From Candidatus Heimdallarchaeota archaeon (GTDB lineage Archaea; Asgardarchaeota; Heimdallarchaeia; Heimdallarchaeales; Kariarchaeaceae): DNA of 32,000 nucleotides. Under the pieces are notes generated by a model. That model ran no database searches and was not told the origin of the DNA. It saw nothing but the letters and a program-made list of their open reading frames with translations. Where the stretch lies: contig JASBSB010000004.1 in assembly GCA_030149205.1 (NCBI GenBank), positions 120,001 to 152,000 on the forward strand, written 5' to 3'. The first letter of the stretch is position 1, and each line of letters starts with the position of its first letter. Positions 7,130 through 14,447 of this stretch are shown piece by piece. A program made the position numbers and the translations under genes.

Positions 7130-8242
7130 GTGGCTATAACCGTTTTAATAGCTGATGATTCACCTTTTATTATTAAATTATTAGAAAAGGTAATTTCAAC
7201 AGATTCTAATCTAAAAATTATTGGAGTCGCTAAAAACGGTACAGAATGTATTACAAAGGTCATAACACAAAAACCAAGAGTAGTCATATTAGATATTGTC
7301 CTTCCAGACCTGAGTGGGTTAAATATTGTTAACCAAATAATGAGAGCAAGACCAACACCAGTAATTTTGTTCTCTTCGTTAACACATTCTACAGTTCGTC
7401 AAAATTCCTTAGTTTTTGATTATGGAATGGTTGATTTTATTAATAAACCAACAGCAGAATTAGGTGACCCATATTTAAATCTCAGAAAGGTTTTGATTCC
7501 AAAAATCTACATTTTGTCCAATTTGAAAGTACATAAATTCTATAATCTGATCAAACAGGTTAATGCAGAATTTATACAATCTACCATAGATCAACTTAAA
7601 GACGAGACAACTGATCCAAAAAATGCTGATATTACTGGTTCTTCTACTCCGATAGTTGTTCATTCTAGTTTTAGAAAACTCATAATAATTGGTGCAAGCA
7701 CAGGTGGACCTCATCTTTTAACAGAATTAATCAGGAGAATCCCCAAAAATTTACCTCCAATAATAATAGTCCAACACATGCCGGAAGGTTTCATAGAATC
7801 TTTTGCCACTCGCTTGGATCAACATGCGAATGTGAAAGTCTACGCAGCAGAAGATGGAATGGAACTTAAAGGTTCGATGGTTGTGGTCGCAAGGGGAGGA
7901 AAACATCTTAAGGTCATATCCAAAGGTGGCAAACCAGCAGTTGTCTTTGATAACTCTCCAATGGTTAATTTTGTGAGACCTTCAGTCGACGTAACAATCA
8001 AATCAGCGGTAAATATTTACGGTGGAAGGATTGTAACAGTTATTCTTACTGGAATGGGTAAGGATGGTTTAGCGGGGAGTATTCTTGTCAAAAAACAAGG
8101 GGGAAAGGTGTTAGCTCTAAATGAAAGAGATTCCGTGATTTTTGGGATGAATAAAGCTGTCATCGAGGCGGGAGTTAGTGATGGAGTTTATTCAAAAAAT
8201 GAGATAATTAATGAGATGGTGAAGGCTGTTCAAACCCTTTAG
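7130..8242 (+). CDS. cheB: Chemotaxis methylesterase CheB (receiver + methylesterase)
   Basis: Receiver domain (ADDS, LDIVLP, KP); catalytic triad motifs GASTGGP, VQHMP, LTGMGKDG; RPSVD. Confidence 0.96.
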   Translation: MAITVLIADDSPFIIKLLEKVISTDSNLKIIGVAKNGTECITKVITQKPRVVILDIVLPDLSGLNIVNQIMRARPTPVILFSSLTHSTVRQNSLVFDYGMVDFINKPTAELGDPYLNLRKVLIPKIYILSNLKVHKFYNLIKQVNAEFIQSTIDQLKDETTDPKNADITGSSTPIVVHSSFRKLIIIGASTGGPHLLTELIRRIPKNLPPIIIVQHMPEGFIESFATRLDQHANVKVYAAEDGMELKGSMVVVARGGKHLKVISKGGKPAVVFDNSPMVNFVRPSVDVTIKSAVNIYGGRIVTVILTGMGKDGLAGSILVKKQGGKVLALNERDSVIFGMNKAVIEAGVSDGVYSKNEIINEMVKAVQTL

Positions 8243-8634
8243 GAAGCTATGGTCTTAGCTACTGCTTTTATAATCTCTTCATTTCTAAATGGTTTTATTA
8301 TGAATTCCCTTGCCCCAGACTTAATCGCGTCAAGAACGAAAGCCTCCTGTCCCAATGCAGTAACCATTACAATTCTTGCACTAGGGTCAAACGACATAAT
8401 TTGTTTTACTGCCTCAATCCCATTTTGTTTTGGCATAACAATATCTAGTGTCATGCAATCAGGTTTATCCTTCGCCCAGATCTCAACAGCATCAATACCT
8501 GTCTCCCCCTCAGCAACAATTTCATGTCCTGCTTGTGTTAGAATTCTTCTCAAAACTAATCTCATAAATTTTGCATCATCGACTATTGCTATCCTTGCCA
8601 TATACTTGCCTCTTTTGAGAAAACTACATATCAT
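8239..8634 (-). CDS. cheY: Response regulator CheY (copy 2)
   Basis: VDDAKFMR, LDIVMPKQNG, VTALGQE, IIKPF. Likely start is ATG 8601, preceded by AAGAGG; downstream of cheA. Confidence 0.93.
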   Translation of the reverse strand: MICSFLKRGKYMARIAIVDDAKFMRLVLRRILTQAGHEIVAEGETGIDAVEIWAKDKPDCMTLDIVMPKQNGIEAVKQIMSFDPSARIVMVTALGQEAFVLDAIKSGAREFIIKPFRNEEIIKAVAKTIAS

Positions 8635-8735
8635 ATCAAATAGTCATATTATTTAATTCTTTTTTAGGGAATAAAATTGGATTAAGAAATCAAATCAAAT
8701 TATTAGTAAAAATACGACCTAGAATTGACTTATCA

Positions 8736-10667
8736 TCAATTTATCACTCGGATTTTTTTTCTTGGATTTAGAGTTGTTGGGTCAATAATTAGTACGACTT
8801 CTTCCTCTTTAAGAATTGTTGCTCCACTATATCCTGGGAATTGTTGGATGTTGCTGGAGATTTGCTTAGTAACGATTTCTCTTTGTTCGAGCACATCGGA
8901 AACCTTCATTGCAATTCTTTTACCTCCCTTTTCCCATAAAATTACCTTTTTATTTATACTTTTTTTCCGCCCTGTATCCTTCTTCTGAATTGAGAGTTCG
9001 TTTGGAATCTCCAAATGGTATTCCAAGTCAAAGATAGGAAGTGTATAATCCTCTTCCTTTACATAAGATTCTTGCTCATGAATTTCAATTTCTTGATCTT
9101 TTTCCGAGTAGATTTTAACAACGTTGAGCAGAGGAATTGCAAATACATGTTCGTTTACGATAACAATCAATGCCTCAATTATGGCTAAAGTCTGAGGAAC
9201 TCTTAAGATAAATTGAGTACCTTCACCTTTTTTGGTTCTGAGTTGAATAGATCCCCCAATCTCCTCAATAGTCTCTTTGACAATATCCATTCCAATGCCT
9301 CTCCCTGCTGCTTCTGTTACTTGAGAAGCTGTACTGAACCCAGGATTAAATATCAAAGCTGCAACTTGAGACCTCGTTAATTTGGTATTTTCTGTGATAA
9401 GTCCAAGTTCTATTCCTTTTGATCGGATTCTTTCTAAATCCAATCCAGACCCATCATCTTCAACTGTTATAGAGACCTCTCCCTTCTCTTGAACTGCAAT
9501 TACCCTAACCGTTCCTTCCTTCGATTTACTGAGTTTTTTACGAGTGGAAGTATCTTCGATACCATGTGTAGCTGCATTCCTTATTAAATGTAGAAGTGCT
9601 TCATTTACTTGATCAATAACAGATCTATCCAATTCTATGTGATTCCCTTGTGTAAACAGATTTATATCTATCCCTCTCTTGTTTGCAATATCACGAACTG
9701 TCCTTGGATAATTATCAAAAATTCTAGCCAAGGTAACCATTCTCATTTTCATAAGTTTATCTTGAATTGTTGTGATTAATGAATCAAATTGGTTCAGGTC
9801 TTCAACTACTTCTGGGGTGGTTTGAACTGCTACATGGTTTTCCAATCTGCTTCTCGCTAGGACAAGCTCTCCAAGCAGGTCAACAACCTCATCCAACTGA
9901 TTAAGGTTTACTCGTACAGTTTGAATTCCACGAGTAAATTTAACTCTCTGTCTTTGGGGCACGATTGCCTCTTCTACCACAGAGGTAATTTCCACTTCAT
10001 CAACGTCGGTAATCCCTTCGATAACCTTTCTAAGCGCACCCTCAGTTTCATTAGTAACAAGCTCAAAATGGATCTCACCAAATACTTTACCTTCAGAAAT
10101 ATCGACCTTTGACGGAGTTGAATCCTCGATCACAGCTATCCGCTCAAGATCACGAAGTAATTGAAATGCTCTGGTACTTAAAAGAGGTGCGTTTCTTTTA
10201 AATTTAACCACAACTGTAAATCTATTCTCGAGTTTTAAAAATTCAGAGGGTTGTGATTGAGTATCTTGCTCCAGCTCTAAATCTGTCTGTAGGTTAAATG
10301 TTGATAAAAATTGCACTAAATCATCCACTGGGACTTTGTTTAGATCGCCTTCTTCAACGGCAACCTCTTTAAATTGCTCTAATCTGTCCACAACTTGGAA
10401 CAAAACCTCAAGCAAACTTTTGGTCACTGCTTTTTCTTGTTCAACTTCCCGGATCTTACTCTCCACTATATGAGTAAGGTTTGTTAAATTTGTGTATCCC
10501 ATTGTCGCAGCCATTCCTTTAACTGTGTGAGCTGCTCTAATTACCTCACTAAGTGGACTCACATCCTTGGGATTCTTTTCTAACAAGATCAATGAATCAC
10601 TTAATAATTTGGTATTATCCTCCAACTCTGATATGAAGATGTCTTTGTATTCGTCCAATCTAAACAA
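8736..10667 (-). CDS. cheA: Chemotaxis histidine kinase CheA
   Basis: Hpt (AAHTVKGMAATMG), P2, dimerisation (VRVNLNQLD), HATPase (HLIRNAATHGIE, DDGSG, FNPGFST, GRGIGMD) and C-terminal CheW-like P5 domains. Confidence 0.97.
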   Translation of the reverse strand: MFRLDEYKDIFISELEDNTKLLSDSLILLEKNPKDVSPLSEVIRAAHTVKGMAATMGYTNLTNLTHIVESKIREVEQEKAVTKSLLEVLFQVVDRLEQFKEVAVEEGDLNKVPVDDLVQFLSTFNLQTDLELEQDTQSQPSEFLKLENRFTVVVKFKRNAPLLSTRAFQLLRDLERIAVIEDSTPSKVDISEGKVFGEIHFELVTNETEGALRKVIEGITDVDEVEITSVVEEAIVPQRQRVKFTRGIQTVRVNLNQLDEVVDLLGELVLARSRLENHVAVQTTPEVVEDLNQFDSLITTIQDKLMKMRMVTLARIFDNYPRTVRDIANKRGIDINLFTQGNHIELDRSVIDQVNEALLHLIRNAATHGIEDTSTRKKLSKSKEGTVRVIAVQEKGEVSITVEDDGSGLDLERIRSKGIELGLITENTKLTRSQVAALIFNPGFSTASQVTEAAGRGIGMDIVKETIEEIGGSIQLRTKKGEGTQFILRVPQTLAIIEALIVIVNEHVFAIPLLNVVKIYSEKDQEIEIHEQESYVKEEDYTLPIFDLEYHLEIPNELSIQKKDTGRKKSINKKVILWEKGGKRIAMKVSDVLEQREIVTKQISSNIQQFPGYSGATILKEEEVVLIIDPTTLNPRKKIRVIN

Positions 10668-13091: not shown

Positions 13092-13802
13092 ATGGATCAA
13101 ATAGACGAAATGTATCGAATTTTCAAAAACGCAAAGCAAAAGGAATTTTTTGGTGAGTTGCAGGCTGCGATTCAACTCTATCTAGATGCTGCAAGTTATG
13201 CCCTTAACATTTACAAACAAGATCAAACAGCAAATAAAAAGTTCGAAAGTCTAGCAATTAAGATAGTTTCTCATGTTAAACAGGTGAAATCTGAGATTAA
13301 ATCACAAAACAACTCAGTTCTCCAATTTTTGGATTCAGATTTCCCGCCACCTCCTCAAAGTGATCAACTCAGTAGCACAGAAGATGACAAAATCACAGAG
13401 ATAAGTTCAATAGACCAATTACTTCTTATTTCTAAGTTTGGTTCACCAATTTTAAGTTATAATTTTAAAGCTGTTGACTCAATGAACCCCCTCTATGGAA
13501 ATGAGGTGCTGTTTTCAGGAGCAATGTCCGCAATTTATTCTATTATTCAAGAGACCATCAAAAGTGATATCCAAAAAATTAGTTTAGATGGAAAAAACAT
13601 CTTGATTCAAAAATCTGATGATCTTTTTTTCATATTGATATCAGATGCTGAAGAGGACACATTTAAAGAAAAAATAACAACTTTTGCAGATTCATTTCTT
13701 AACAAGTTTGATAAAAAGATCTCATCAGCACTAAAGAACGGTGAGATGATCTCAGATGATAAAGAATGTATAGAATTTATACATACTAACCTCGGATTTT
13801 AA
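13092..13802 (+). CDS. MIT-like domain + longin-like domain fusion protein
   Basis: Residues ~3-70 fit a three-helix MIT pattern (AKQKEFFGELQAAIQLYLDAASYAL); Pro/acidic linker; C-terminal half fits the Asgard longin-like pattern (LLLISKFGSPILSYNF...LFSGAMSAI...IQKISL...LFFILIS). Confidence 0.6.
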   Translation: MDQIDEMYRIFKNAKQKEFFGELQAAIQLYLDAASYALNIYKQDQTANKKFESLAIKIVSHVKQVKSEIKSQNNSVLQFLDSDFPPPPQSDQLSSTEDDKITEISSIDQLLLISKFGSPILSYNFKAVDSMNPLYGNEVLFSGAMSAIYSIIQETIKSDIQKISLDGKNILIQKSDDLFFILISDAEEDTFKEKITTFADSFLNKFDKKISSALKNGEMISDDKECIEFIHTNLGF

Positions 13803-13856: not shown

Positions 13857-14447
13857 GTGAGTTTTCCTTATCCATATCCTTTAGGACTCCCAAAAGGAAC
13901 TGTAAGAGCAACAATTACACTTGCTTTCACAATAGATCTAATCTTTCTAACGCTAAATTCTGAGACCACGGCCAATCTGGTCTCTCCATTGGTATTAGTT
14001 GCTTTAACCTTTTATTTTGGTGGAAGAATGAGGATAAATCCCTCCATCATAGTTCCAAAAGCTCCAGCTGCCGAACGAGCGTGGGGACTTCCTGCTGGAA
14101 CTATTCGATCTTTATTGATTTTTCTCTTTGGGGCGTTCACAGTTTACCTGATTTATGAACGTAGAACACTCCCCAGTTATATTCTGGATATCTTTAATAT
14201 AATATTCGGGTATTTAATTGGATTAATCTTTTTAAAAATCAAGACATGGTACAGGAGGAGAAAAAACAGTGAAATTACTACTAGCCATATAGGTCCATTG
14301 GATCACCTTGTGTCTTTATTAGCCCTTTCAATTTCTGGTACCACTATTTATATTTTGACAGCTACACCTACAGTAAGTTATATCCTCCTTGTTGCTAATA
14401 TCGCCTCAATAACATTAGGGTTTTACTTTGGTGGAAGATCAACTTAA
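13857..14447 (+). CDS. Membrane protein with internal two-helix repeats
   Basis: About 6 TM; repeated LGLPKGTVRA / WGLPAGTIRS and TFYFGGR / GYLIG / GFYFGGR motifs. Confidence 0.75.
   Translation: MSFPYPYPLGLPKGTVRATITLAFTIDLIFLTLNSETTANLVSPLVLVALTFYFGGRMRINPSIIVPKAPAAERAWGLPAGTIRSLLIFLFGAFTVYLIYERRTLPSYILDIFNIIFGYLIGLIFLKIKTWYRRRKNSEITTSHIGPLDHLVSLLALSISGTTIYILTATPTVSYILLVANIASITLGFYFGGRST

Follow-up and report, generated by a model that had tools for sequence, protein, structure and literature searches.

An MIT-linker-longin gene

The window, the whole stretch of 32,000 nucleotides of Heimdallarchaeota DNA analysed here, contains a gene for a 27 kDa protein in which an MIT domain, a flexible linker and a longin domain follow one another. 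MIT domains are modules that hold the membrane-cutting proteins of ESCRT-III, and longins serve the trafficking GTPases of eukaryotes as docking platforms. An exhaustive search returned 16 further full-length homologues of 221-299 residues (22-36% identity), which match at both ends and differ in the linker. Because these homologues share both ends, the ORF is a real, conserved gene. The homologues with names come from records of Candidatus Kariarchaeaceae and Heimdallarchaeota; word-based searches matched the query alone, and Atlas searches led to unnamed Asgard clusters. The protein is soluble, no hydrophobic segment having been found in it. An AlphaFold2 model built with the family alignment places helices at residues 3-19, 23-43 and 49-80, a low-confidence stretch at 80-104 and then a C-terminal domain of the order b-b-a-b-b-b-a-a-a. 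A bacterial promoter scan, which is ill-suited to archaea, gave chance-level results.

Table 1. Features of the MIT-longin gene and of its surroundings in the window
Feature	Position	Strand	Basis or remark
Gene for 236-aa soluble MIT-linker-longin protein	13092..13802	+	ORF, ATG start, full-length homologues
MIT domain, residues 1-72, three-helix bundle (helix 3 modelled to residue 80)	13092..13307	+	hhalign, Foldseek, structure Z
Flexible linker, residues 81-104	13332..13403	+	pLDDT under 50 (full model); length highly variable in family
MIM2-like proline motif FPPPP, residues 84-88	13341..13355	+	Family form LP-x-P/A/V-P
Longin domain, residues 105-236, with conserved first-helix motif NE-x-LFSGA	13404..13799	+	Structure searches
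196-aa membrane protein	13857..14447	+	54 bp downstream of the MIT-longin gene
Chemotaxis genes (CheB, CheY-like, CheA)	7130..10667		2.4 kb upstream of the MIT-longin gene

Gene neighbourhoods are not conserved in the family. Across 14 loci, neither ESCRT nor GTPase nor roadblock genes were found as conserved neighbours, and an operon with ESCRT or GTPase genes was rejected. The only recurring neighbours in these loci were a DEAD-box helicase (three), an alpha/beta hydrolase (two) and genus-level neighbours. The small membrane protein encoded downstream in the window is internally duplicated (GLP-x-GT-x-R and FYFGGR each occur twice), has no Pfam match and is absent beside the homologous genes. 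The chemotaxis genes are likewise not conserved beside the homologues, save for a CheY-like gene in L111.

The original prediction read the N-terminus as an MIT domain from a residue pattern, which is indeed present (A14, E18, G21, A26, L29-Y30, A33, L38, K42), though its Leu falls one position further on than stated. The MIT domain, residues 1-72, is related to that of Vps4. A profile of these residues retrieved, among the 8234 ORFs of its own genome, the Vps4 of the complete ESCRT operon (E 1e-5), and the family profile retrieved Vps4 genes across Asgard archaea at E 4e-8 to 3e-5 per genome. When aligned by hhalign against ten Asgard Vps4 MITs, the domain matched at 96.8% (E 2.8e-10) over 65 columns that take in all three helices. 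With the domain folded alone (pLDDT 91-97), the top 26 Foldseek rows were all MIT and the first TPR stood at rank 36, none of the MIT rows being at E under 0.001, as is usual for so short a domain. The best structural match was the Sulfolobus Vps4 MIT 2w2u (Z 11.1, rmsd 1.4 over 69 residues), and the VPS4A MIT superposed with a TM of 0.80 by target and an rmsd of 1.9. Since TPR-like rows tie on structural Z, the MIT call is carried by the sequence evidence. This protein misses the gathering score of Pfam PF04212 (13.9-16.4 bits against 30 bits, E 0.06), Pfam matches MIT in 5 of the 17 family members (best E 7.2e-7), and a profile search of PDB sequences reached no better than E 0.1, for the calpain-7 MIT. 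A TPR fragment was rejected, as there is a single three-helix unit in place of the tandem 34-residue hairpins of a TPR, and TPR_2 appears in 2 of 17 members at a best E of 0.056; a generic coiled coil was rejected on the profile homology and the Foldseek matches.

The domain shares with the MITs of Vps4/CdvC (Asgard Vps4, VPS4A/B, Sulfolobus 2w2u) the three-helix bundle, the core and the helix 2/3 face, with clear profile homology. Unlike Vps4/CdvC, the protein lacks the AAA+ ATPase domain, its helix 1/3 (MIM2) groove is changed, and the MIT is followed by a MIM2-like motif of its own and a longin. As in MITD1, Vta1/LIP5, SNX15, NRBF2 and VPS9D1, the MIT would be a docking module on another functional domain, and VPS9D1 and NRBF2 connect their MITs with small-GTPase regulation. 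To our knowledge none of these eukaryotic non-ATPase MIT proteins is fused to a longin. We claim no orthology with them, and, although most human MIT domains bind ESCRT-III tails, those of NRBF2, VPS9D1 and ULK1 bind none (PMC9477494). The MIT of Asgard Vps4 binds ESCRT-III by ITC (PMC7240154).

The longin domain and the linker motif

The C-terminal half had been called longin-like, and structure searches and topology bear this out: in the model, residues 105-236 have the longin fold. The best match was the TRAPP core chain 7b6d_C (Z 14.0, rmsd 2.8 over 124 residues), followed by the VAMP7 longin (Z 12.4), sedlin and AP sigma subunits, and Foldseek returned zeta-COP at E 7e-5. Longins align at Z 11-14 over 115-130 residues, roadblocks at Z about 10 over 93-104. 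A longin is defined against a roadblock by the order b-b-a-b-b-b-a-a, by having no N-terminal helix and by an extra C-terminal helix (PMC10933270). The model has no N-terminal roadblock helix and carries extra C-terminal helices, as in longins, and a roadblock was thus rejected on topology and aligned length.

In the family alignment the first helix is the best-conserved stretch of the longin. The equivalent helix in eukaryotic longin pairs is the helix of the dimer and of the GTPase platform. Fold and topology are shared with the longins of TRAPP small subunits, VAMP7, AP sigma/zeta-COP and Mon1-Ccz1, as is a first helix of small residues that would suit dimer packing. Identity to these longins is, however, 9-20%, and the nearest relatives are not known GEF subunits but membrane proteins of 412-417 residues (Heimdall 7TM-longin fusions), so that a GEF or GAP role would be an analogy. 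About 26 other proteins of this genome have the same longin type, and roughly half of these have 5-8 hydrophobic segments. By motif, the genome also has about 22 small GTPases. Longins serve as dimeric GTPase platforms, and the numerous longins and GTPases of Asgard archaea are without assigned partners (PMC10933270). Directly upstream of the MIT-longin gene, one genome encodes a membrane protein of 376 residues that ends in a longin (L015:189-1319 / L036:4698-5828).

The stretch between the domains had been described as a low-complexity linker. It is a linker, but one with a conserved proline motif that the description had missed. The pattern phi-P-x-phi-P is present in 18 of 22 distinct linkers, whereas shuffling each linker gives an expectation of 1.5; the pattern was picked after viewing the alignment, with any x allowed, and the homologues are related and so not independent. 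The motif, usually 8-11 residues past the MIT core, has the MIM2 core with a charged middle residue in only 3 of the 18. The full MIM2 consensus, with its charged x and second proline repeat (PMC8970359), is absent, the present protein having a run of prolines. The motif resembles the MIM2-like elements (LPxP / LPxA/V) in the ESCRT-III tails of the same family. As in the MIM2 elements of yeast Vfa1 and IST1, an extended proline motif follows a helix and lies outside the core ESCRT-III polymer; unlike in these, it is shorter, lacks a second proline repeat and is a putative binder.

Such a motif could make the protein a cofactor of Vps4, its linker docking on the Vps4 MIT as does yeast Vfa1 and delivering or stimulating the ATPase at sites chosen by the longin, with its own MIT in a secondary role. 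The frequency of the motif and its spacing from the MIT core, which implies a preceding helix as in Vfa1 and Vps20, speak for this, as does the helix 1/3 face that Vps4 keeps invariant. We nevertheless consider it quite improbable, as 4 of the 22 linkers and most members of a second MIT-longin family (see below) lack the motif and only three linkers have the strict core of PMC8970359, x being rarely charged. The motif might also sit in the remodelled helix 1/3 groove of its own MIT, a self-closed switch or decoy that would compete with Vps4 for ESCRT-III tails once a longin partner opened it. Residues 81-94 do rise to pLDDT 65-70 when folded without the longin, from about 40 in the full model, and an antiparallel mode of binding in the helix 1/3 groove exists in Atg13. 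However, the rise may be an effect of truncation, and canonical MIM2 runs parallel to helix 3 (PMC9477494), an arrangement that a motif placed directly after that helix could hardly adopt; we think this reading decidedly improbable. Either can coexist with the ESCRT-III adaptor considered next.

ESCRT-III and other candidate partners of the MIT domain

A complete ESCRT run lies on another contig of this genome (L027:6454-11823; G000:C8:40453-45822), with UEV-type, Vps28-like, Vps22-like, Vps4 and Vps25-like genes and two Snf7-family genes. Both ESCRT-III subunits (C8:44529-45149 and C8:45151-45822) end in a MIM2-like element (in the family, LP-T/M/A-P and LP-E/D/T-A/V) followed by a conserved MIM1-like terminal helix, and in both tails Glu stands where Arg is usual. 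On the ESCRT-III tail profile, the genome's other tails all scored no higher than shuffles. Charge complementarity between a Lys at the E68 position and the acidic ESCRT-III tails was considered and is not claimed.

The groove sites were mapped with the VPS4A/B numbering and a VPS4B alignment. Over position sets inferred from helical spacing after the column table had been seen, and in part buried, the helix 2/3 face compares with Asgard Vps4 at a mean BLOSUM of 2.4 (3.0 within Vps4) and the helix 1/3 face at -0.4. The equivalent of L64 is Ile or Val in 17 of 17 members (V59 in this protein, where F11 corresponds to V13), the equivalent of the MIM1-contacting Glu37 is mostly Ser or Thr, and the Vps4-invariant A13, Y62 and R65 are replaced. 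In VPS4A, L64D blocks the binding of MIM1 (helix 2/3) and V13D that of MIM2 (helix 1/3) (PMC11218997), with equivalents in yeast. Because the sets are post hoc and every non-Vps4 Asgard MIT shows the same pattern, a Vps4-like helix 2/3 face beside an altered helix 1/3 face is a hint of MIM1-type binding and may be structural.

Co-folding of residues 1-74 with the C-terminal 40 residues of the Vps2-like subunit gave 0.44, rated weak, against 0.01 for the best of three controls. Of 80 solved pairs 58 reached this mark, and of 110 mismatched pairs 2 did, but only 7 of the solved pairs and both mismatches did so at 0.60 or under. The runs agree in at least 90% of contacts, with a partner pLDDT of 56-57. 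Since MIT-MIM complexes have been solved, this pass may be memory and indicates likeness only. Binding of ESCRT-III by this MIT domain is thus only weakly suggested by the modelling.

The reading that we tentatively favour, at a little short of an even chance, is that of a soluble, non-catalytic adaptor for ESCRT-III tails, its longin paired with the longin of a membrane protein or with one linked to GTPases. In its helix 2/3 groove the MIT would hold the MIM1-like helix at the C-terminus of polymerised ESCRT-III. The longin would use its first helix to pair with a second copy of itself or with another longin protein of the genome, and this pairing would connect ESCRT-III with a receptor in the membrane or with a platform for small GTPases. 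The linker motif would add a further contact, either by docking in the MIM2 groove of Vps4 or by folding back onto the MIT of its own chain, and so tune the timing of filament disassembly. The Asgard Vps28-C/adaptin/longin fusions likewise hold an ESCRT-binding module and a longin in one chain, and a coupling of ESCRT with small GTPases has been proposed for them (Makarova et al. 2024, PMC10936438). They would dock on ESCRT-II by way of Vps28-C, the MIT-longin protein on ESCRT-III or Vps4 through its MIT and MIM2-like motif.

Against the ESCRT-III adaptor stand the lack of conserved ESCRT, GTPase or roadblock neighbours and the presence of the same MIT subfamily on HerA-type ATPases, from which it follows that the ligand of this subfamily need not be ESCRT-III. 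The Kariarchaeaceae-type subfamily is fused to HerA/DUF87-type ATPases in this genome and in four others of its family, and it lies apart from Vps4 in the tree. The partner might then be another protein, such as the helical tail of a GTPase-roadblock or membrane longin protein, and the fusion a scaffold within longin/GTPase signalling that, like NRBF2 or ULK1, takes no part in ESCRT function. The replaced Vps4-invariant residues would fit this, and the NRBF2 MIT acts on the PI3K complex, NRBF2 being linked to the longin GEF MON1-CCZ1 (PMC8463979). A candidate partner, the GTPase-like protein C2:203608 of 529 residues, has a basic MIM1-like helix at its end; its tail, however, scores 0.1 on the local ESCRT-III tail profile. 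With the Vps4-like helix 2/3 face, the ESCRT-type motif in the linker and the weak co-folding pass also against it, we hold a non-ESCRT partner to be possible, though rather unlikely. Of the predicted adaptor coupling ESCRT-III to longin/GTPase regulation, the two domains therefore stand, its ESCRT-III arm is weakly indicated by the grooves and the co-folding, and the neighbourhoods lend it nothing. The GTPase link is an analogy of fold, and the protein a plausible candidate for a link between the ESCRT and trafficking-GTPase systems.

Distribution, origin and related fusions

The full-length fusion occurs in 10 of the 12 genomes of its own, Kariarchaeaceae-type family, the two without it being 80% and 84% complete; 35 other genomes of the order yielded none. 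With the MIT profile a second MIT-longin family came to light, its members 220-227 residues long, in 4 of 5 genomes of two other families; two of its records bear a Baldrarchaeia label and two bear other labels. Its longin groups with other Asgard longins in the longin tree. Forcing the two families together was rejected by that tree (AU p 0.013, with the group fixed after the tree had been seen and long branches present) but not by a 74-column MIT tree (p 0.37). The longin tree suggests that the Baldrarchaeia-type family probably has a separate origin.

An Asgard adaptor built at least twice independently, with the MIT on ESCRT-III tails, a MIM2 mimic on Vps4 and a longin dimer with membrane receptors or GTPase regulators, is compatible with these data though unlikely. 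If true, signals from receptors or small GTPases would by this route set the sites of ESCRT-III assembly or dismantling in a prokaryote.

Lineage-specific architectures made by shuffling domains of this kind are known from Asgard archaea (bioRxiv 10.1101/2020.10.19.343400). We found no description of the MIT-longin fusion or its MIM2-like linker in the searchable literature, which excludes subscription journals and the asCOG tables, and no such fusion in PMC10936438 (text and available supplements), the Liu et al. preprint, PMC10933270 or PMC13734099. Both domains are themselves known; their fusion is real and conserved, an architecture apparently undescribed so far. It bears on how Asgard archaea, which are without CdvA, ESCRT-0 and Bro1/ALIX orthologues (PMC8970359, PMC10936438), aim and regulate ESCRT-III, with candidate ligands named from the same genome. 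If the protein binds as proposed, a prokaryote would have an MIT cofactor that is no ATPase, and the ESCRT and longin/GTPase systems would have been physically connected before eukaryotes. The narrow distribution limits the evolutionary claim to an invention of the lineage, not an ancestor of a eukaryotic protein.

One genome holds two paralogous MIT-longin genes (G002:C444, G002:C102), where a binning error is possible at 3% contamination. The MIT-HerA/DUF87 fusions lie at L026:7957-9504 (G000:C7:129956-131503) and L099-L104, with two in G005. In another Asgard family, proteins of 216-232 residues (L048, L056, L057, L058, L060) join an MIT to a C-terminal four-cysteine zinc ribbon through a long linker with a conserved NLP-x-G motif. 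A 281-aa protein (L062:874-1719) has a Vps4-like MIT and, after a very proline-rich linker in which PPPP recurs several times, a small helical domain at the C-terminus; it has matches of similar length in 4 of the 11 genomes of its family.
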